A DNA stretch of 53,930 bases from Treponema sp. GTDB lineage: Bacteria; Spirochaetota; Spirochaetia; Treponematales; Breznakiellaceae. Position 1 is the first letter of the stretch. Each line of letters starts with the position of its first letter. A program made the position numbers and the translations under genes. The notes beneath the pieces were generated by a model that was not told the DNA's origin, ran no database searches, and worked only from the letters and a program-made list of their open reading frames with translations. This document shows positions 32,629 to 42,225 of the stretch, piece after piece. The DNA lies in assembly GCA_031280155.1 (NCBI GenBank), contig JAITHD010000199.1, positions 1-53,930 of the forward strand, in the 5' to 3' direction.

Positions 32629-32987
32629 TCCGGCAAAACTCAGGGGCTTAGGTCTTTTTAGAGGCTTATGCCCCAAGATTTTCACGGATCCTGCCGAAAA
32701 GATAGTTGAGCGGTTAGCATTTAATTTCTTCACAGCTGAAGACGAGGAGTTTTACGGCAAAACAGTTTTTTGATTTCCTTAGTATCATAAAAAATATAGG
32801 TTTAGGTATATCAATGACGTATGTATTTAATTCATTATACTATAAAGAATTAATGATTTTTATGAGTTTAACGGAAGATATCGCATTAAAATTTGTTATG
32901 ATATTGCCTAGCATAAAGATAAACTAATGGATTATACTTAGTAGTAGAAGTAGAACACTTTTATTAATGAGGGGATAAGGAGTTCTT

Positions 32988-35900
32988 ATGAAAAATCAGA
33001 TATTAGATTTTGTACTATTAAAATTGATGATTTTTTTATTGCTTGTATCCTGCGGCGGCGCTCCCAAACCACCTGAGACGCCTCCGCCTTCTGAAGGAGT
33101 TAAGGCTCCGTCTGTAACTGAGTCTGGGTCAGCAAACGAGTCTATATCGACTCCTACTCAACAAGCTCCCGGAAAGGATGCATTAGATGCCTTAAACGCC
33201 GCTATGACTAGGGCTGAGAATGCCAGAAAAGCAGTTGTAGACGTCCAGGGACAAGTGTATTTTCCAGAGGACTGGAAAGCTGCGGAGTCTAAGCATGAAG
33301 CTGGTAAGAATGTAAATAAAGATACTGCTGACGGAGTGAATGAAGCTATTGCTTTGTATACCGCCGCAGCGGAAGCCTATGAAGCTATTGCCGAGAAAAG
33401 CGGGGTCCGTCTCGCTCAGGAGCAGGAAGACGCATTGGCTGCTTTGCAGGCGGCTATGGCGCGAGCTGAACAGTCCCAAAAACAGGCTCAAGATGTGAAG
33501 GGACCAACTTATTTCCCTAAAGATTGGCAAACCGCTGAAACTAACCATCAAAACGGAAAAGACGCAAAAAAAGATACTGCTGACGAGATTAAAGCCGCTA
33601 CCGCTTTATATACCGCCGCGGCGGATAGGTATGATGATATTACTCGTAAAAGCCGTCCGCTTGTCGCTAAAGAAAAAGACGATGCTTTGAAGGCTCTGAA
33701 CGCGGCTATGGCGAGAGCGGAAAATTCCCGAAAACAAGCGATGGATGTTGAAGGACAGACTTATTTCCCCAATGACTGGAAGAGTGCGGAGTCTAAGAAT
33801 CAGGCTGGAAAGAACGCCAAAAAGGAGAGCACCGACGAGATTAAGGCGGCGGCAGCGCTATATATCAGCGCGGCTGAAGGGTATGACGATATTACTCGTA
33901 AAAGCCGTCCGCTCTTTGCCAAGGATAAAGACGACGCTCAGAAAGCCTTGGACGCGGCTATGGCGAGAGCCGAACAATCTCGAAAAGAAGCTCAAGGCGT
34001 GGAGGGAGAAACCTATTTTCCGAAAGAGTGGCAAACCGCTGAATCTAAGCATCAAAATGGGAAAGCTGCAAAAAAGACAACGACTGCTGAAATAAAAGCG
34101 GCTACGGTACTGTACAATGGAGCGGCTGACGGATATGATGATATTGTTCGCAAGAATAACACTCGGCTTACCAAGGAAGAGGAAGATGCCCGAAAAGCCT
34201 TGAATGCAGCGATAGCCCGAATGGAAAATTCCCGTAAACAGGCTTTGGATAATCAAGGTCCTGCGTATTTTCCGAAGGACTGGCAAAACGCGGAGTCTCA
34301 AAATCAGGCTGGGCAAAATGCAAAGAAAGATACTACTGAAGAAATCAAAGCGGCTGTTGCGTTGTATGTTGCCGCAGCAGACAGTTATGATGATATTGCT
34401 GGTAAGAGCCGACCTCTTTTCGCCAAGGATAGAGATGATGCTCAGAAAGCCTTGAACGCGGCTATGGCGAGAGCCGAACAGTCCCGAAAAGAGACTCTTA
34501 ACGTAGAGGGACAAAACCATTTCCCCAAGGATTGGCAAACCGCAGAGTCTCAGAATAAAGCCGGAAAGGATGCGAAAAAGACAACCATAGATGAGATTAA
34601 GTCAGCTGCGGCCTTATATACCTCGGCGGCGGACACCTATGATGCTATAACAAACAAGACTCGGATCCAGCTCGCTAAAGAAAAAGACGACGCTCAGAAA
34701 GCCTTGAACGCGGCTATGGCGAGAGCCGAACAGTCCCGAAAAAACGCAATAGACGTGAATGGTCAGACCTATTTCCCCAATGACTGGCAAACCGCAGAGT
34801 CTCAGCATCAGACTGGGCAGGATGCAAAGAAAGATACTACTGAAGAAATCAGGGCGGCTGCGGCGCTATACACCCAAGCGGCGGATACTTACGATGATAT
34901 TACTGGCAAGACCCGTCCGCTCTTTGCTAAGGATAAGGACGACGCTCAGAAAGCCTTGAACGCGGCTATGGCGCGAGCCGAACAGTCCCGAAAAAACGCA
35001 ATGGATGTGAATGGTCAGACCTATTTCCCCAATGACTGGCAAACAGCGGAGTCTCAGAACAAAGCTGGAAAAGATGCGAAAAAGACAACTATAGATGAGA
35101 TTAAGTCAGCCACGACCTTATATACCTCGGCGGCGGATACTTACGATGATATTACCGGCAAGAGCCGCCCCCTCTTAGCTAAAGATAGAGACGACGCTCA
35201 GAAAGCCTTGAACGCGGCTATGGCGAGAGCCGAACAGTCCCGAAAAAACGCAATGGATGTGAATGGTCAGACTTATTTCCCTAATGACTGGAAAAATGCG
35301 GAGTCTAAAAATCAGGCTGGACAGAATGCAAAGAAAAATACGGCTGATGAAATAAAAGCGGCTGCGGCGCTATACACCCAAGCGGCGGATAGTTATGACG
35401 ACATTGCCGGTAAGAGCCGTCCGCTCTTTGCTAAGGATAAGGACGACGCTCAGAAAGCCTTGAACGCGGCTATGGCGAGAGCCGAACAGTCCCGGAAGCA
35501 GGCGCAAGACGCTCAGGCTCCCGCGTATTTCCCCAAGGACTGGCAAACCGCAGAATCCAAACATCAAGACGGGAAAACCGCCAAGAAGACAACCACCGAA
35601 GAGATCAAGGCGGCTACGACAGTATACATCCAAGCAGCGGACGCCTACGATGATGTTGCCGGCAGAAGCAGAACTATGCTTGCTCAGGAACAGGGAGACG
35701 CCCTCAAAGCCTTGCAGGACGCTATGGCCCGGGCGGAACAGTCCCGGAAGCAGGCGCAAGATGCTCAGGCTCCCGCGTATTTCCCCAAGGATTGGCAAAA
35801 TGCGGAGTCTAAAAATCAGGCTGGACAGAATGCAAAGAAAACTACGGCTGATGAAATGAAAGCGGCTGCGGCGTTATACATCCAAGCGGCGGACGCCTAC

Positions 35901-36911
35901 GATGATGTTGCCGGCAGGAGCAGAACTATGCTCGCTCAGGAACAGGGAGACGCCCTCAAAGCCTTGCAGGACGCTATGGCCCGGGCGGAACAGTCCCGAA
36001 AACAAGCCCTCGGTTTTCAGGGTCCTGAGTATTTTCCCAAGGACTGGCAAACCGCAGAGACTCAGCGACAGTCCGGCAATGAGGTAAAAGGGAATACTCC
36101 AGAAGACATTAAAGCGGCGGCGGCTTTCTATACCGCCGCGGCGGATATGTATGATGATATAACCCGTAAGAGCCGTCCCCAGTATATTCAAGCCTGGGAA
36201 GATGCGCTGAGAAGGGAACGGACTATTGCAGTGGATGCGGGAATCGGCGCTATAGCGCCGGATCATCTCGGCAGCGCCGACAGGCTCGCGGCTGAAACCC
36301 GTCGAAACTTGGGGTCAGACGCATATATTCCTGAGGAACAAGCCCTTTCCTTGCCGCTTGATATGTATCGGTCTCTTAAACCAAGAGCCGAGGGATACAA
36401 AGTACGGCAGGAAATTATAGAACGGGGTTTTTCAACGGCTGATCCAGAGACCTTTGCGGCGGGAGATAAAAACACGCTTACAGCAATACAGGATTATGAA
36501 TCCGGGAATCCAAAAACCGCCCGAAATAAGGCGGATGAAGCCCTTGAACAGTATCATGAAGTCCTTATGAACGGCTGGCTGTCCTTTGCTCAAGCGAAAA
36601 GGCTTGAAGCAAGTAAAGAACGTCAAGCTGCAGTAGATGTTAAGGCTCATATAGCGGTTCGAGACGACTTTAATCATGCCGATAGGATCTACCAGCAGGC
36701 GCTGACCGACTTTGACGCAAAAGCCTATGAAGCCGCTGCGGATTTGTACAGTCAATCTTCCGTGCGATTTATCGCCGCCGCTCAATCAGCGGAAGAAAAG
36801 CGCCGACAGGCAGAAGAAACCATTGCTGCGGCTAAACAAAAAACAGCCGAAAGTACAGCCCGTGCAACAAACCTAGGGCTTATGATGGAGGGGGAAGATG
36901 AGTCGAGGTAA
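32988..36911 (+). CDS. Very large tandem-repeat lipoprotein (12 x 84 aa plus degenerate copies); function unknown
   Basis: 1307 aa. SD AGGAG lies 5 nt upstream of the ATG. Lipoprotein signal is ...MIFLLLVSCGG, and that Cys is the only Cys in the protein. A Pro/Ser-rich linker is followed by perfectly phased 84-aa Ala/Lys/Asp/Gln-rich units with an invariant YFP.(D/E)W motif. Confidence 0.9.
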   Translation: MKNQILDFVLLKLMIFLLLVSCGGAPKPPETPPPSEGVKAPSVTESGSANESISTPTQQAPGKDALDALNAAMTRAENARKAVVDVQGQVYFPEDWKAAESKHEAGKNVNKDTADGVNEAIALYTAAAEAYEAIAEKSGVRLAQEQEDALAALQAAMARAEQSQKQAQDVKGPTYFPKDWQTAETNHQNGKDAKKDTADEIKAATALYTAAADRYDDITRKSRPLVAKEKDDALKALNAAMARAENSRKQAMDVEGQTYFPNDWKSAESKNQAGKNAKKESTDEIKAAAALYISAAEGYDDITRKSRPLFAKDKDDAQKALDAAMARAEQSRKEAQGVEGETYFPKEWQTAESKHQNGKAAKKTTTAEIKAATVLYNGAADGYDDIVRKNNTRLTKEEEDARKALNAAIARMENSRKQALDNQGPAYFPKDWQNAESQNQAGQNAKKDTTEEIKAAVALYVAAADSYDDIAGKSRPLFAKDRDDAQKALNAAMARAEQSRKETLNVEGQNHFPKDWQTAESQNKAGKDAKKTTIDEIKSAAALYTSAADTYDAITNKTRIQLAKEKDDAQKALNAAMARAEQSRKNAIDVNGQTYFPNDWQTAESQHQTGQDAKKDTTEEIRAAAALYTQAADTYDDITGKTRPLFAKDKDDAQKALNAAMARAEQSRKNAMDVNGQTYFPNDWQTAESQNKAGKDAKKTTIDEIKSATTLYTSAADTYDDITGKSRPLLAKDRDDAQKALNAAMARAEQSRKNAMDVNGQTYFPNDWKNAESKNQAGQNAKKNTADEIKAAAALYTQAADSYDDIAGKSRPLFAKDKDDAQKALNAAMARAEQSRKQAQDAQAPAYFPKDWQTAESKHQDGKTAKKTTTEEIKAATTVYIQAADAYDDVAGRSRTMLAQEQGDALKALQDAMARAEQSRKQAQDAQAPAYFPKDWQNAESKNQAGQNAKKTTADEMKAAAALYIQAADAYDDVAGRSRTMLAQEQGDALKALQDAMARAEQSRKQALGFQGPEYFPKDWQTAETQRQSGNEVKGNTPEDIKAAAAFYTAAADMYDDITRKSRPQYIQAWEDALRRERTIAVDAGIGAIAPDHLGSADRLAAETRRNLGSDAYIPEEQALSLPLDMYRSLKPRAEGYKVRQEIIERGFSTADPETFAAGDKNTLTAIQDYESGNPKTARNKADEALEQYHEVLMNGWLSFAQAKRLEASKERQAAVDVKAHIAVRDDFNHADRIYQQALTDFDAKAYEAAADLYSQSSVRFIAAAQSAEEKRRQAEETIAAAKQKTAESTARATNLGLMMEGEDESR
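33177..36200 (+). repeat. Coding tandem repeat array, 12 units of 252 bp
   Basis: Units start at 33177 and every 252 nt after that (for example 34689, 34941, 35193, 35445, 35697, 35949), each beginning GA(C/T)GC.. (Asp-Ala). Units 7-9 and units 10-11 share stretches of about 100 nt with only a few mismatches. The terminal units are more diverged. Confidence 0.95.
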
Positions 36912-37623
36912 GTATACAGTATCAATACTGATAGTGATTTTCAGCTTGAGAATTATACCGCTCTTTGCTGTGGAGGGGGATTTTCAGCCTTCCGCTTTTG
37001 TTAATGCTTTGCTTAATAATCAGTATTTGCTTGAAAGCGTCAGGCTTACGAAACTGGCTGAAGAGTGTTACGCTCAAGGAGAGTACGATCAGGCAATCAA
37101 ATATGCGGAAGAGGCTATGAAGTATGCTGACTGGTCGGATATCTATGTAACCTTACAGATGAAGATCAAAAGCGCTAACGACGCGATTGCCGCAGCTCAG
37201 ACTCGTCTTGACTGGGCTGCCGAAGTAGGTGCGCCTAAGCGGTATGCTGTGGAGTATGAAAATGCTCAGGTCATCTTTGAGGATGCGCTGATTGCTCGTT
37301 CTGATGAAGAATGGGACCCAGCCCGGGAAAACGCGCTTAAGGTTCTTGAGATATTAGCGATAGTAGAGGAGATTCCAACGCTTCCAGCCCAATACTTGGT
37401 CAAGACCTGGAATCCCATGAAAGATTGTTTATGGAATATTGCGGGTAAACCTCAGATTTACGGGGATCCTTCAAAATGGCGATTTATCTATGATGCGAAC
37501 AAGGAGAAATTGTCCAAACCTGATAATCCTAATCTTATCCATCCAGGTATGATTTTGGAAATCCCCAGTATCAATGGTGAAATCCGGGCTGGTTTATGGG
37601 AGGAAGACGACTCTGTTTTATAG
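36898..37623 (+). CDS. LysM-domain protein with N-terminal signal/anchor, one TPR-like helix pair and one copy of the upstream repeat module
   Basis: 241 aa. The ATG lies 14 nt inside the end of the upstream ORF and is preceded by GGAGGGGG. The hydrophobic N-terminus is YTVSILIVIFSLRIIPLFA. The C-terminal LysM is YLVKTWNPMKDCLWNIAGKPQIYGDPSKWRFIYDANKEKL..PNLIHPGMILEIP. Confidence 0.85.
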   Translation: MSRGKYTVSILIVIFSLRIIPLFAVEGDFQPSAFVNALLNNQYLLESVRLTKLAEECYAQGEYDQAIKYAEEAMKYADWSDIYVTLQMKIKSANDAIAAAQTRLDWAAEVGAPKRYAVEYENAQVIFEDALIARSDEEWDPARENALKVLEILAIVEEIPTLPAQYLVKTWNPMKDCLWNIAGKPQIYGDPSKWRFIYDANKEKLSKPDNPNLIHPGMILEIPSINGEIRAGLWEEDDSVL

Positions 37624-37718: not shown

Positions 37719-38627
37719 ATGGAAGATATAAAAAATTATCGTATTCTGATCATTGATGATGAAAAAATCAATCTTATGATTTTGAATACTATACTGGCTC
37801 CTGATTATACGATCTTTATTACTAAGTCTGGGCGGGAAGGATTATATTTGGCTATGACCAATAAACCAGACCTTATCCTGCTGGATATTATTATGCCTGA
37901 AATGGACGGTTTTCAGGTTCTTAAAGCCTTAAAAACCTCGGAAAATACTCGGCATATTCCGGTAATCGTTATTACCAGTCTTGATAATGAAAAAGACGAA
38001 GAAAAGGGACTTATTCTTGGGGCAGTTGATTACATTAGGAAACCATTAAAAAATATCATTGTAAAAGCCAGAGTGAAGACCCATATCCAGATTATTCAGC
38101 AAATCCGTATTAGTGAACGACTGAGTATGCTTGACGGTCTTACAAATATTCCAAATCGGCGTTGTTTCAATGAACGTATTAGTATGGAGTGGGGGCGTTC
38201 TCTGCGGGATAAGAAGCCTCTTTCATTTATCATGCTGGATATTGATAACTTCAAGGGTTATAACGACACGTATGGACATCCTCAAGGGGATGCGTTACTA
38301 CGGACTGTTGCACAGATATTCGCTGCTATAGCTTTGCGATCTACGGACTTTGCCGCCCGTCTTGGAGGCGAAGAGTTCGGCGTCCTTCTGCCGGATACGG
38401 ACCTGAACGCGGCGGTACAGATCGCTGAAAATATCCGTATCGCTGTGGAAACTACGCCTATTCCCACGGTCGAGGGAAAAATCACGGCCGCCACTGTCAG
38501 CGCCGGGGTTATATCAACAATTCCCTCTCAGTCGATAAGCATAGAAGAGTTTATTACGATTGGGGATAAAAATTTGTACATCGCTAAAAAAAGGGGGAAA
38601 AATCAAGTCCGCTTCATTGCGCTTTAA
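37719..38627 (+). CDS. Response regulator receiver fused to a GGDEF diguanylate cyclase (PleD/WspR-like)
   Basis: 302 aa. REC domain: ILIIDDEKIN...DLILLDIIMPEMDGF...PVIVITS. GGDEF domain: active-site RLGGEEFGVLL with an RxxD I-site (RSTD) exactly 5 residues upstream. Confidence 0.93.
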   Translation: MEDIKNYRILIIDDEKINLMILNTILAPDYTIFITKSGREGLYLAMTNKPDLILLDIIMPEMDGFQVLKALKTSENTRHIPVIVITSLDNEKDEEKGLILGAVDYIRKPLKNIIVKARVKTHIQIIQQIRISERLSMLDGLTNIPNRRCFNERISMEWGRSLRDKKPLSFIMLDIDNFKGYNDTYGHPQGDALLRTVAQIFAAIALRSTDFAARLGGEEFGVLLPDTDLNAAVQIAENIRIAVETTPIPTVEGKITAATVSAGVISTIPSQSISIEEFITIGDKNLYIAKKRGKNQVRFIAL

Positions 38628-39659
38628 TCACTGATACATGATAATATATGGGCGCGGATTGAGTTCATAAACTTGCTTGGGAGTGAGCAGGGGATTATCA
38701 TACCCCGCGCCGGGTATGCCGAAATTATAGAAGAGCTTAAACCCTTTAATCGGCATATTAGTAGCCTGGGCATTGACCGCATAGGAATCCCGTTTAAGGT
38801 GAGGCGCACCGAATCCGTCGGCGCAGTGTACCAGCCGTACCCGCGTAAAATTCGCCCTAACCCGTTCCCGATTTCTGATCATGTGGATATTAAATTGATG
38901 AATAACGAGCAGTCGTTCTCCCGGAATCTTATTTGCAATTATGTAATCTTCCATAGCTTTTTGGGCTTGGTTGATCTCATCTGCTGTTACGGATCCGATT
39001 TCTTTCATAGGTTTTGTGGTGCGCCATTCAGGGTCTAAGGCAAGATGGACATTAGGATATTTTAAATAAGGAAACATTCTTTTAATAGCGTCTAAGGGAT
39101 GATACTTTCCTATCTGATGGTCAATAAATACCAACATATTGTGTTTTAAGGCATAATCTATATATCTGAGCAACAAGGCTTCATTAATAATGCCGATTTC
39201 CCCTGCGGGCCAGACCGTTCCGTATATAATATAGAAAGCCTTTCGTATTCCTCTGCCTCCGCTTACCGCCCGATACTCTGCCGCCAATTTGGTCAACTGA
39301 GCATCAAGCTCTTCCATAGAATACCTGCCTAAAATACCCATGTTCCGAGAATTTGGATGCCCATAATAGGCAAGAATATCATCATTAAGAAGAATAGACT
39401 GCGCTACAAGCTGGCTTTCCTCTTCAGGATAAACCCAATTGGGTTTAGACGCGTCTTGATTTATAACGGATTTTACCGTATCCATAAAATAAATAGAAGG
39501 AAAAAGCGGCGCACCTCCAAGACTTACCGGTTCAGCCCCAACCGGCGGCAATGATAAAACCGGAACTTCCTGTGCATTAATCAAAAAAGGAAACCCAAAA
39601 CATAGAAGGTAAAACATCACAAGCCGCAATTTTTTCAAAAAATCTCTAGCCCGTATCAT
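38628..39659 (-). CDS. Secreted hypothetical protein (no family recognised; possibly a glycoside-hydrolase-like fold)
   Basis: I prefer the ATG at 39659 (MIRARDFLKKLRLVMFYLLCFGFPFLINA-QE signal peptide). The track ORF start at 39887 would overlap the lon 3' end by 137 nt. Conserved-looking segments are YYGHPNSRNMGILG, FIDHQIG, ALDPEW and VIHQF. Confidence 0.65.
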   Translation of the reverse strand: MIRARDFLKKLRLVMFYLLCFGFPFLINAQEVPVLSLPPVGAEPVSLGGAPLFPSIYFMDTVKSVINQDASKPNWVYPEEESQLVAQSILLNDDILAYYGHPNSRNMGILGRYSMEELDAQLTKLAAEYRAVSGGRGIRKAFYIIYGTVWPAGEIGIINEALLLRYIDYALKHNMLVFIDHQIGKYHPLDAIKRMFPYLKYPNVHLALDPEWRTTKPMKEIGSVTADEINQAQKAMEDYIIANKIPGERLLVIHQFNIHMIRNRERVRANFTRVRLVHCADGFGAPHLKRDSYAVNAQATNMPIKGFKLFYNFGIPGAGYDNPLLTPKQVYELNPRPYIIMYQ

Positions 39660-39750
39660 CTTTAAATTATCGGTAAAAATAAAAAAAACTTTAGAAGAAA
39701 AAACAGCTTTTTTCTCTTTTTCCCGGCTCTCTTGGGGATAGCCTGAGCCG

Positions 39751-42225
39751 TCACATTTTTCTGCCGCTTTCATTGCTTGTTTCCCCAGAATTTTCCGGTT
39801 TTTTATGGCGGCGGAACCGTCTGCCCTGCTGTTCCGGAGATTTCTGACTATCCACGTCGAACAACAGGCTGAACGCATCCACCGCATTTTCTACAAAGGC
39901 GACCTCAATAGCCGACGTAATATCCACTTCCAGTTCAGCCCAATCGTCTTTATTATCCAACGGAATGAGAACCTGTTTCATGCCGTTTCGTATAGCCGCA
40001 AGAACCTTTTCCTTGAGCCCCCCAATGGGAAGAATCCTGCCGGTAAGCGTGAGTTCTCCGGTTATGGCAATCCCCGGCTTCGGCGGCTTTTGACAGAGAC
40101 TAGAGAGAAGAGATGCCGCTAAAGCGACCCCTGCGGAAGGTCCATCCTTGGGAATAGCCCCTTCAGGAATATGAATATGAAAATCAGTCTTTCCAACGTC
40201 CTGTACCAGAAAATTGTACTGTTCCTGTATGCTTCTCAGATAAGACACCCCAATCTGAGCGCTTTCCTTCATAACGTCCCCCAGATTGCCTGTGAGGGTA
40301 ACTTCTCCGGAGCCGTCGAATCTGACGGTTTCTATAGGCAGCACAGTTCCGCCGGTCGATGTCCAGGCAAGCCCGTAAGAAATACCGATTTGGGCTTCCT
40401 TGAATACCACATCCTCCTTATATTTCCGCCGCCCCATCAGCTTTTCCACATCTTCCCGATCAACCAGCTTCTGGAACGATCCAATCGGTTTTTCCGGGTC
40501 TTTGCCGTATTCCTGATTCACCGCTTCTTGTGCAATCCGCCGAATACATCGGGCGATTTCCCGTTCCAAGCTCCGTACGCCGGATTCCATAGTCCAGTAT
40601 TGAATAATGTCCTGAACCGCTTCGTCTTTAAACGTAATGTCCGCTTGTCCTAAGCCGTTTTCTGACAGCTCTTTAGGTATGAGAAAATGCTGGGCGATAG
40701 CCAGCTTTTCGTTATCCCCGTATCCGGGAATTTCGATGATTTCCATTCGATCCAGCAAGGGATACGGGATAGTATGGAGTGAATTGGCAGTTGCGATAAA
40801 CAGTACCTGAGAAAGATCATAGGGAACTTCCATGTAGTGATCCATGAAGTTGCTGTTCTGTTCAGGATCAAGCACTTCAAGAAGCGCCGCCGCCGGATCT
40901 CCCCGAACATCATTGACGGCGATTTTATCAATTTCGTCCAGCAGAAAAACTGGATTAATCGTTCCGGCTCGACTCATATACTGGATGATCTTTCCTGGGA
41001 GAGCGCCGACGTAGGTTTTCCTATGCCCTCGGATTTCCGCCTCGTCCCGAACTCCCCCCAGGGAAAACCGCACAAACCGCCGTCCCAACGCTCTGGCTAC
41101 GGATTTGCCGAGACTCGTTTTGCCTGTTCCCGGAGAGCCTACAAAACAGAGAATAGAACCCTTGATGCCGGCTTGCTCATTTTCCAAAGATAACAGTTTA
41201 CGGACCGCGATAAATTCAAGGATCCGTTCTTTTGCCTTCCGCATATTGAAGTGATCTTCGTTTAATATCCGCTCCGCTTCAGCGAGATCTCCTGAATCAG
41301 CGGTGAATTCATTCCATGGAAGGTCTAATATCCATTCTAAATACACCCTGAGAATTCCCGCTTCCGGGGTAAAGGGGTGGAGCTTCTGTAACCGAACCAG
41401 TTCTTTTCGCGCTTTAAAAAGCGCTTCTCCTCGGGGTTTTTTCGCTTCAATTTTTTGTTCCAGTTCCGTGAAATCTTCAGTCCGCTCGTCTTTGCCGAGT
41501 TCCCGATTGATTTCCTTGAGCTGCTCATTGAGAATATATTCGCGGTTGCTTTTTTCTATGCGGTTTTTTACTTTGCCTCGGATATTTTGCTGAACGCTGA
41601 AGACCTCGTTTTCAAGCTCTAATATTTCAAGTATTAATTGCAGCCGCGCTACTGGATCGTCACTAGTGAGGATTTCGATTTTCTGTTCCGGTTTAATCTG
41701 CAAGGCGTGAGCGCTTAAATTCGCGAGAGTTTCTAAACTTTCGGTTTTTTCTATTAAAACCAGTAATTCGGTACTGACTTTTTTGGTACAGTCCGCATAT
41801 TGGGCTAACGCGCTTTGAACCGCCCGCATGAGGGCTATTGCTTCAGAATTGAGGGGAGTATTGGAAACCGGCTTAATCGGATCGATTCGGACCATAGAAA
41901 CTTCCTCTGCCTTAGCCGACGAAGCGATAAGTCCCCGGTATTCGCCGTGCAGCACCACCCGAAACGTATTATCCGGCATCTTTAAGTGCTGGGTGATCCG
42001 AACTACACTGCCCGCTTCATAGGTTTCATCAACGCTTTTGAACTTCAAACAAGCGGCGAATAAACGTTTATCTCGTTTCAAGGCTTCGTCAATCGCCCGC
42101 ATCCCCTCTTTGTAGGTAACAAACACGGATAACGTTATATTGGGAAACAGCACTAATTCCCGTAACGGCAGCAGAGGCAATTCCTCAATCGGGGGTTTTC
42201 CTTTAAGCGACGAAAGGAATTTCAT
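39751..42225 (-). CDS. lon: ATP-dependent protease Lon
   Basis: 824 aa. It has the LON N-domain, Walker [14 protein letters not shown], Walker [10 protein letters not shown] and the protease active site [12 protein letters not shown]. Confidence 0.97.

Follow-up and report, generated by a model that had tools for sequence, protein, structure and literature searches.

A tmpA–tmpB-type gene pair of Treponema with a 12-unit array of predicted spectrin-like bundles

A contig of 53,930 nucleotides (nt) from Treponema sp. (Breznakiellaceae; GenBank assembly GCA_031280155.1, contig JAITHD010000199.1), here called the window at its full length, carries two overlapping genes that encode a repeat lipoprotein of 1307 amino acids (aa) and a secreted partner of 241 aa. 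Judged by sequence comparison, the pair is a termite-gut-type version of the tmpA–tmpB operon family of Treponema, represented in T. pallidum by Tp0768/Tp0769, and so the initial annotation, in which the genes could not be assigned to any known system, has to be corrected. While the tmpA–tmpB family is known, the 12-unit expansion of TmpA, the predicted spectrin-like fold of its units, the amplification of the module in either partner, the natural fusions of both proteins and the structural and architectural match to the Lyme-spirochaete protein BB0323 are new. With some reserve, we favour a reading in which both proteins make up a periplasmic tether that is anchored by lipid, bound to peptidoglycan and adjustable in length. 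The features of the pair are the following.

32977–32982, forward strand: Shine–Dalgarno sequence AAGGAG, 5 nt 5′ of the large-gene start codon ATG (sequence).
32988–36911, forward strand: tmpA-type gene for the 1307-aa lipoprotein, a TmpA orthologue with expanded array (open reading frame, homologues, profile match, position 5′ of tmpB).
32988–33053, forward strand: lipoprotein signal peptide with lipobox L-V-S-C and Cys22 (sequence).
33054–33173, forward strand: Pro/Ser/Thr-rich linker, aa 23–62 (translation).
33174–36197, forward strand: 12 tandem units of 84 aa (252 nt), aa 63–1070, each predicted to be a spectrin-like three-helix bundle (phasing, Tandem Repeats Finder, AlphaFold2 model).
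36198–36908, forward strand: C-terminal 237 aa, predicted to comprise the ancestral TmpA core of three diverged bundles, then a terminal helix that is conserved and reaches past the last of them (model, colinear alignment).
36887–36894, forward strand: Shine–Dalgarno sequence GGAGGGGG of the partner gene, within the large gene (sequence).
36898–37623, forward strand: tmpB-type gene for the 241-aa secreted protein with helical and LysM domains (open reading frame, homologues).
36898–36969, forward strand: signal peptide without Cys, aa ~1–24, cleaved probably after PLFA-V (sequence, family alignment).
36994–37362, forward strand: helical domain, aa 33–155, with a TPR-like hairpin, a 47-residue helix and a bundle at aa ~88–155 (AlphaFold2, weak TPR and DUF4398 matches).
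37375–37602, forward strand: divergent, predicted peptidoglycan-binding LysM domain, aa ~160–235, with the motifs DCLWNIA and LEIPSI (profiles, model).

The pair is assigned to tmpA–tmpB because of a database name, a profile match, the identity of the partner, published protein termini and the position of the lipidated cysteine. UniRef names the upstream protein of T. putidum 'Treponemal membrane protein A'. The profile of the large-protein family aligns colinearly with this T. putidum TmpA over 216 columns (hhalign probability 82%, E 1e-5), and a family member of 390 aa does so in BLASTP (E 6e-7 to 9e-7); in the alignment of the family with T. putidum TmpA, 24 columns are invariant. This evidence for TmpA homology, in which the comparison passes via T. 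putidum, is of moderate strength. With the T. putidum protein whose gene lies immediately 3′ of tmpA, the partner shares 39% identity (E 5e-55), and the window protein and T. putidum TmpA have the lipidated Cys22 in common. For T. pallidum TmpA, cleavage is predicted between S21 and C22 (PMC5015957, supplement). A published table of constructs lists Tp0769/TmpB as residues 25–325 (SYDDNE...KYRPLP) and Tp0768/TmpA as residues 27–345 (...EGASR; PMC10782976). The mature chains of the T. putidum partner and of a 324-aa relative begin with SYDDNE, as published for Tp0769, and C-termini in the TmpA family read ...EGNTR and ...EGGAR, with ...EGEDESR in the window protein. The T. pallidum genes were cloned in 1985, and the title of a paper by Hansen et al. 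(1985) calls them an operon. As far as can be judged via T. putidum, the pair of the window and that of T. pallidum are alike in having a Cys22 lipoprotein followed by a secreted partner, and in colinear termini and order of parts. Presumably, the stop codon of tmpA and the start codon of tmpB overlap in T. pallidum as well. However, TmpA counts 345 aa in T. pallidum compared to 1307 aa here, because the first bundle was amplified to 12 copies. The window TmpB additionally misses a Pro/Lys-rich spacer that is present in relatives of T. pallidum TmpB.

The large protein starts with MKNQILDFVLLKLMIFLLLVSC, which closes in the lipobox LVSC, and Cys22 is the sole cysteine of the 1307 aa, as the initial annotation had read it. 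The 12 phased units described there are confirmed as well: the motif [YH]FP occurs 12 times at a spacing of exactly 84 aa throughout the array, and Tandem Repeats Finder reports a period of 252 nt with 10.8 copies and 72% matches. Across the 12 units, mean column identity is 75% and 19 positions are invariant. The 237 aa that follow the array are colinear with homologues of 338–403 aa and with T. putidum TmpA. Homologues of the large protein of 720–1204 aa were retrieved by homologue search. Word-indexed searches with the repeat protein gave only 19 and 8 matches (low-complexity words), and loci on genome contigs were used instead. Scans for promoters and terminators returned sites that are no more numerous than in shuffled sequence.

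A tandem period of 252 nt is a classic assembly hazard, and the initial annotation had considered that the large open reading frame (ORF) at 32988–36911 might result from repeats that were collapsed or expanded during assembly. This is hardly credible. The DNA of the units is only 59–88% identical, the longest exact repeat between them measures 66 nt, and synonymous divergence (dS) is ~1.5. Moreover, homologues with 5–13 units are encoded in independent assemblies, long arrays of 11–13 units among them; one independent metagenome-assembled genome (MAG) encodes a homologue of 1221 aa that is 63% identical and in which 11 units are detected. Because of this divergence and these independent homologues, the 12-unit array is not an assembly artefact and the ORF is genuine. 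The units are old and under purifying selection, with a ratio of nonsynonymous to synonymous divergence (dN/dS) of ~0.15 between units.

To describe the fold, units 11–12 and the C-terminal 237 aa of TmpA were modeled with AlphaFold2 from a 48-row alignment of family segments, giving a mean predicted local distance difference test (pLDDT) score of 96.7 and a predicted template-modeling (pTM) score of 0.78. In the model, the first helix of a unit (~22 residues) is separated from the second (~16 residues) by a short turn with the aromatic-Pro motif (YFP), and a long third helix passes unbroken into the first helix of the next unit. Helices bridging two bundles span residues 52–107, 136–181, 215–244, 273–315 and 345–404 of the model. 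The C-terminal 237 aa, in which the initial annotation had seen about three degenerate copies, indeed appear as three more three-helix bundles, followed by a 60-residue helix with its second half beyond the last bundle. This terminal stretch is conserved almost like the last bundle itself (0.56 vs 0.59–0.62). According to the model, the topology of TmpA is that of a spectrin-type rod of ~15 bundles, 12 amplified and 3 ancestral, and not of stacked hairpins; the rod of helical hairpins that was first proposed is therefore replaced by three-helix bundles with continuous helices. From the helix lengths, each unit is estimated to add ~4–5 nm, giving a predicted rod of more than 50 nm in total. In the rods of spectrin, alpha-actinin and dystrophin, bundles are likewise joined by a continuous helix, and partial repeats pair at the tetramerisation site of spectrin. 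Eukaryotic spectrin repeats thus resemble the units in being three-helix bundles chained by a continuous helix into a rod. However, they measure ~106 aa compared to 84 aa here, where the middle helix is short and the aromatic-Pro turn conserved. No spectrin family matched in Pfam, and no eukaryotic spectrin entry is present among the Foldseek matches listed.

The partner gene and the large gene overlap by 14 nt, counted from the partner ATG to the last base of the upstream stop codon. This overlap, together with the position of GGAGGGGG inside the upstream gene, agrees with the translational coupling that had been proposed. The predicted signal peptide, the single related module and the LysM end described initially were also found again, with profiles, with the structural model and with a weak match of a hidden Markov model (HMM) of the unit. 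In the AlphaFold2 model of the partner (mean pLDDT 84.9, low at aa 1–28), a conserved hairpin (helices 42–59 and 63 onward) is followed by one bundle with the same turn pattern as the units, which is entered by the 47-residue helix 63–109. Many of the invariant residues of the TmpB family lie in this N-terminal hairpin, as judged by the family alignment. TPR matches to the helical domain are weak. The unit HMM and hhalign weakly match the partner module, precisely at the bundle that is DUF4398-like and unit-like; in hhalign, the comparison of the 12 units with the partner family is not significant (probability 2%, E 0.021), though the expected module was aligned. No catalytic family was matched by either protein in scans of Pfam and NCBIfam, in line with the initial reading that catalytic motifs are absent.

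The C-terminal region of the partner matches the C-terminus of the NCBIfam model for LipL71 (E 2.8e-14) and PRK11198 (E 1.3e-7). The partner profile additionally matches the LysM chain of Kbp (E 4.9e-4) and the LysM proteins 6ve2_O and 9g8s_T. In the structural model, this region adopts the strand-helix-helix-strand order of a LysM fold (E165–167, H178–182, H191–200, E219–221). No match to Pfam LysM (PF01476) was obtained with the window partner at E <= 1 or, when the last 83 aa alone were scanned, at E <= 10. Despite this miss, the profiles and the model support the presence of a divergent LysM domain. The likeness to LipL71 (LruA) of Leptospira is limited to this region: just the final ~75 residues are matched, at 52.9 bits vs a cut-off of 600, and the remainder of the proteins is unrelated.

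Several family labels were weighed for the repeated module. The initial annotation had sensed a faint likeness to DUF4398, and this impression has sub-threshold support for the module of the partner but does not hold for the 84-aa unit. In the partner family, 13 of the 30 members match DUF4398 (PF14346) on this module (best E 2.3e-4), though none reaches the gathering score; the match in the window partner is weak (E 3.5). The RefSeq name of the T. denticola TmpB orthologue is 'DUF4398 domain-containing protein'. DUF4398 itself has no known function. The 84-aa unit of TmpA did not match DUF4398, and no consistent family was found for it when whole proteins, a single unit or halves were scanned against Pfam and NCBIfam. 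On the whole large protein, DUF6680 passes the Pfam gathering score (57.6 bits, E 1.6e-15) in five stretches at profile positions 78–146 of 170. These stretches seem to span the unit junctions, and may reflect either a real distant similarity or the sum of weak or compositional matches. A single unit has no match, and DUF6680 recurs in only 7 of the 48 segments (best E 1.1e-4). As it has no known function, the label was not used. The Pfam matches to ACT_ACR9_C, L_HMGIC_fpl and MBD add up from weak hits that recur from unit to unit and were set aside, like the NCBIfam match to CotA (38.7 bits vs a cut-off of 75), which is compositional.

The partner belongs to a large family. A word-indexed search identified 330 homologues of the partner at E <= 0.001, for which the available source names are Treponema or Spirochaetaceae, an exhaustive search gave 303 representatives at E <= 1e-30, and a scan of one genome per species gave at least 547 tmpB-type loci. 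The closest relatives of the partner come from termite-gut MAGs (73% and 65% identity). A separate observation concerns protein P0314, a partial protein of 148 aa on a 602-bp contig labelled Pectobacterium parmentieri. It falls in the cluster of the T. denticola and T. putidum TmpB orthologues (90% identity), of which the other named members are Treponema, and the record is probably contaminated.

Conservation of the pair in relatives was followed in 84 loci, i.e., 83 related loci and the window, of which four are cut by a contig end and 80 are evaluable. In 79 of these 80, the partner gene is preceded on the same strand by an ORF that ends at it or shortly before it; in 63 of these 79 upstream ORFs, the unit HMM detects at least one unit. 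The genes commonly overlap by 1, 4, 8 or 14 nt. With the pair conserved and the large ORF genuine, none of the objections foreseen in the initial annotation applies. The usual TmpA is a lipoprotein of ~369 aa with one or two detectable units. Most loci have this number, while a subset has 5–13 units; six of the 80 evaluable loci, the window included, have 5–12 units. In other termite-gut MAGs, TmpA is short (377–403 aa) and it is TmpB that carries ~12–15 copies of the module, reaching 1083–1293 aa. In no locus of the sample are both proteins expanded together. Loci with expanded TmpB are L074 (3616–6882) and L082 (2779–6657), both from Treponema MAG Po218_bin21, as well as L069 and L077, with TmpB lengths of 1089–1293 aa when the ORFs are taken from stop to stop; the module of their arrays measures ~72 aa and contains ..AAAKERLDWATSIGAKTQFPxPY..

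Other parts of TmpB vary as well. Pro-rich spacers separate the helical domain from LysM in TmpB of other species. In the TmpB-type proteins P0274, P0282, P0178 and P0223, the conserved hairpin is set apart from the signal peptide by long acidic or Ala/Arg-rich repeat inserts, which form another element of variable length in this family. P0150 (1066 aa), also of the TmpB type, has a long module array and ends in two LysM-like segments instead of one. Some termite-gut Treponema MAGs contain two or three paralogous pairs of the tmpA–tmpB type that differ in length, i.e., L021/L074/L082 in Po218_bin21, L006/L027 in Emb289P3bin37 and L014/L069 in Pq454_bin73.

In at least eight natural proteins (P0124, P0128, P0133, P0135, P0136, P0138, P0139 and P0276), the C-terminus of TmpA runs directly into the mature N-terminus of TmpB. 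The internal signal peptide is gone at the junction, which argues for real gene fusions and for a position of the TmpA C-terminus next to the TmpB N-terminus in a complex.

The range of 1 to 13 copies among relatives would also suit a function outside the cell. In such a scenario, the lipoprotein is flipped to the surface, where the rod of variable length serves in attachment to gut protists or host matrix or acts as a variable antigen, and the LysM partner is unrelated or has a role in assembly. TmpA and TmpB are indeed strong antigens in syphilis (PMC10782976); TmpA serves as antigen in serological tests for the disease, and for TmpB it has been suggested that its reactivity be used to follow treatment (PMC10782976, PMC5421087). 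In addition, a rod of more than 50 nm, if the model is right, would suit a surface fibril better than a periplasmic strut. However, the genes are nearly always adjacent, repeated fusions join TmpA to a peptidoglycan-binding domain, amplification of the same module also occurs in the LysM protein, and the selection between units (dN/dS ~0.15, dS ~1.5) is purifying and not diversifying as in variable antigens. T. pallidum TmpA is moreover classed among the inner-membrane lipoproteins in a review (PMC5421087). A surface role is for these reasons considered improbable.

The closest structural parallel to the TmpA model lies within the spirochaetes. BB0323 of Borrelia burgdorferi is a lipoprotein. 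In a Foldseek search covering 350,542 PDB chains, the N-terminal domain of BB0323 occupies ranks 1–3 and 8, with template-modeling (TM) scores (target) of 0.58–0.60, probabilities of 0.98–1.0 and 17% identity; ~150 of its 151–161 residues are aligned. The partner model also matches this domain (TM 0.46). Its authors have termed the N-terminal fold of BB0323 a spectrin repeat and describe the protein as lacking homology to other proteins (PMC12758692). It has a single C-terminal LysM motif and is processed to N- and C-terminal polypeptides; the LysM motif binds borrelial peptidoglycan, and the protein matters for outer-membrane stability and cell fission (PMC5462797). BB0323 (PDB 6rjw, 6rjx, 9q9v, 9qaa) and the window pair are thus alike in a spectrin-repeat N-domain (TM about 0.6), a C-terminal LysM and a product of two polypeptides. 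They differ in that BB0323 is encoded by one gene and its product is cut post-translationally, whereas two overlapping genes are present here, which are fused in some relatives. A helical domain and LysM share one chain in BB0323 and in the natural fusions, but not in the window pair. Furthermore, BB0323 has two bundles without a long array, and its sequence similarity to the window proteins is undetectable. Searches of PDB sequences with one unit, with the C-terminal region and with three profiles yielded nothing relevant, and BB0323 is not mentioned alongside TmpA or TmpB in the available literature.

The likeness to BB0323 suggests two further interpretations. The first is that TmpA–TmpB is a two-gene counterpart of BB0323, both belonging to a spirochaete-wide, spectrin-like tether from lipid to peptidoglycan that replaces links of the Lpp type. 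The bundle would be completed between chains, length would be tuned by amplification of bundles in either subunit, and the 12-unit form would correspond to a different envelope geometry. We put this forward as a tentative possibility. The second starts from the binding and mutual stabilisation of the BB0323 N-terminal domain and BB0238 (PMC5462797, PMC12758692). By analogy of fold, the bundles of TmpA and TmpB could bind and stabilise envelope proteins, with module number setting the binding capacity. Such an adaptor role is very doubtful, as no BB0238-type partner was seen beside the window pair and the units are near-identical in core residues, which suggests structural repetition and not a variety of binding sites.

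The favoured tether would work as follows. TmpA would be lipid-anchored at Cys22 and continue through the Pro/Ser linker into a rod of ~15 bundles. TmpB would be exported separately, be built of the same kind of bundle and hold peptidoglycan through its LysM domain, and the overlapping genes would provide for coupled synthesis of both chains. The unpaired C-terminal helix of TmpA may complete a bundle with the N-terminal hairpin of TmpB, in the manner of the spectrin tetramerisation site. In this way, the complex would tether or space a membrane relative to peptidoglycan in the periplasm, its length following the number of modules. The envelope scaffold imagined in the initial annotation thus remains the best reading, and a plausible one, as far as lipid anchoring and linkage to peptidoglycan are concerned, while its hairpin architecture has been abandoned. 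In function, though without homology, the complex could be compared to Lpp, the Braun lipoprotein of enterobacteria. Lpp is a trimeric coiled coil of 58 aa that is covalently attached to peptidoglycan, and its length sets the distance between outer membrane and peptidoglycan. Both would be lipid-anchored helical rods attached to peptidoglycan. Compared to Lpp, however, the rod proposed here would be a monomeric chain of bundles, held non-covalently through the predicted LysM domain of a second protein.

A number of points weigh against this tether and against its connection to BB0323. The link to T. pallidum TmpA and TmpB runs through the T. putidum orthologues and published termini, and the available literature treats both proteins as antigens and states no function for them. 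In Pfam, LysM is matched by only 3 of the 30 members of the partner family, below threshold (best E 0.0086). The Foldseek E-values for BB0323 (0.18–1.8) are not significant alone, and BB0323 (6rjw, 9qaa) is not listed when PDB sequences are searched with three profiles at E <= 10. Deletion of the LysM motif of BB0323 leaves cell fission and outer-membrane organisation unaffected (PMC5462797). Finally, the predicted length of the rod, more than 50 nm, appears considerable for the periplasm. In treponemes, this compartment is a few tens of nm wide according to cryo-tomography. For this reason, the rod could run at an angle or follow the wall; alternatively, the envelope of this lineage could be unusual.

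A rod longer than the plausible gap leads to another alternative, in which the rods run parallel to membrane and wall as an elastic meshwork that is pinned to peptidoglycan by TmpB and, instead of setting a distance, stabilises the envelope against the shear of the rotating periplasmic flagella. The spectrin-like fold with its continuous linker helices would fit such a lateral skeleton, as would the effect of BB0323 loss on outer-membrane stability and cell fission (PMC5462797). Nothing points to self-association or to a lattice, however, and short forms of ~4 bundles dominate the family. As a lipid anchor at one end and a peptidoglycan-binding domain at the other fit an end-to-end tether, the meshwork is regarded as unlikely, though less so than the surface and adaptor roles.

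The tether reading, for its part, suggests one structural frame for TmpA, TmpB and BB0323, consisting of a lipid anchor, spectrin-like bundles and LysM. If the pair is truly the two-gene counterpart of BB0323, TmpA, TmpB and BB0323 would share a structural role. BB0323 is needed for infectivity of the Lyme spirochaete and is pursued as a drug target (PMC5462797, PMC12758692). The natural variants, i.e., short and long forms, expansion on the A or the B side and fused or split proteins, make the idea of a periplasmic tether or ruler testable, and this in bacteria without Lpp and with flagella in the periplasm. Should the tether idea fail, the locus would still present an old, selected amplification of a folded module.

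Two neighbouring regions of the window were noted as well. Directly 3′ of the pair, the forward-strand gene at 37719–38627 encodes a response-regulator receiver fused to a GGDEF-type domain, as read from its translation. This neighbour is not conserved in the related loci L001 or L003 and is therefore probably unrelated to the pair. Further on, a 419-aa ORF on the reverse strand (38628–39887) shares 137 nt with the 3′ end of the gene for Lon protease (39751–42225, reverse strand); for this ORF, a start at an internal Met ahead of a signal-peptide-like stretch (MIRARDFLKKLRLVMFYLLCFGFPFLINAQ) seems likelier.

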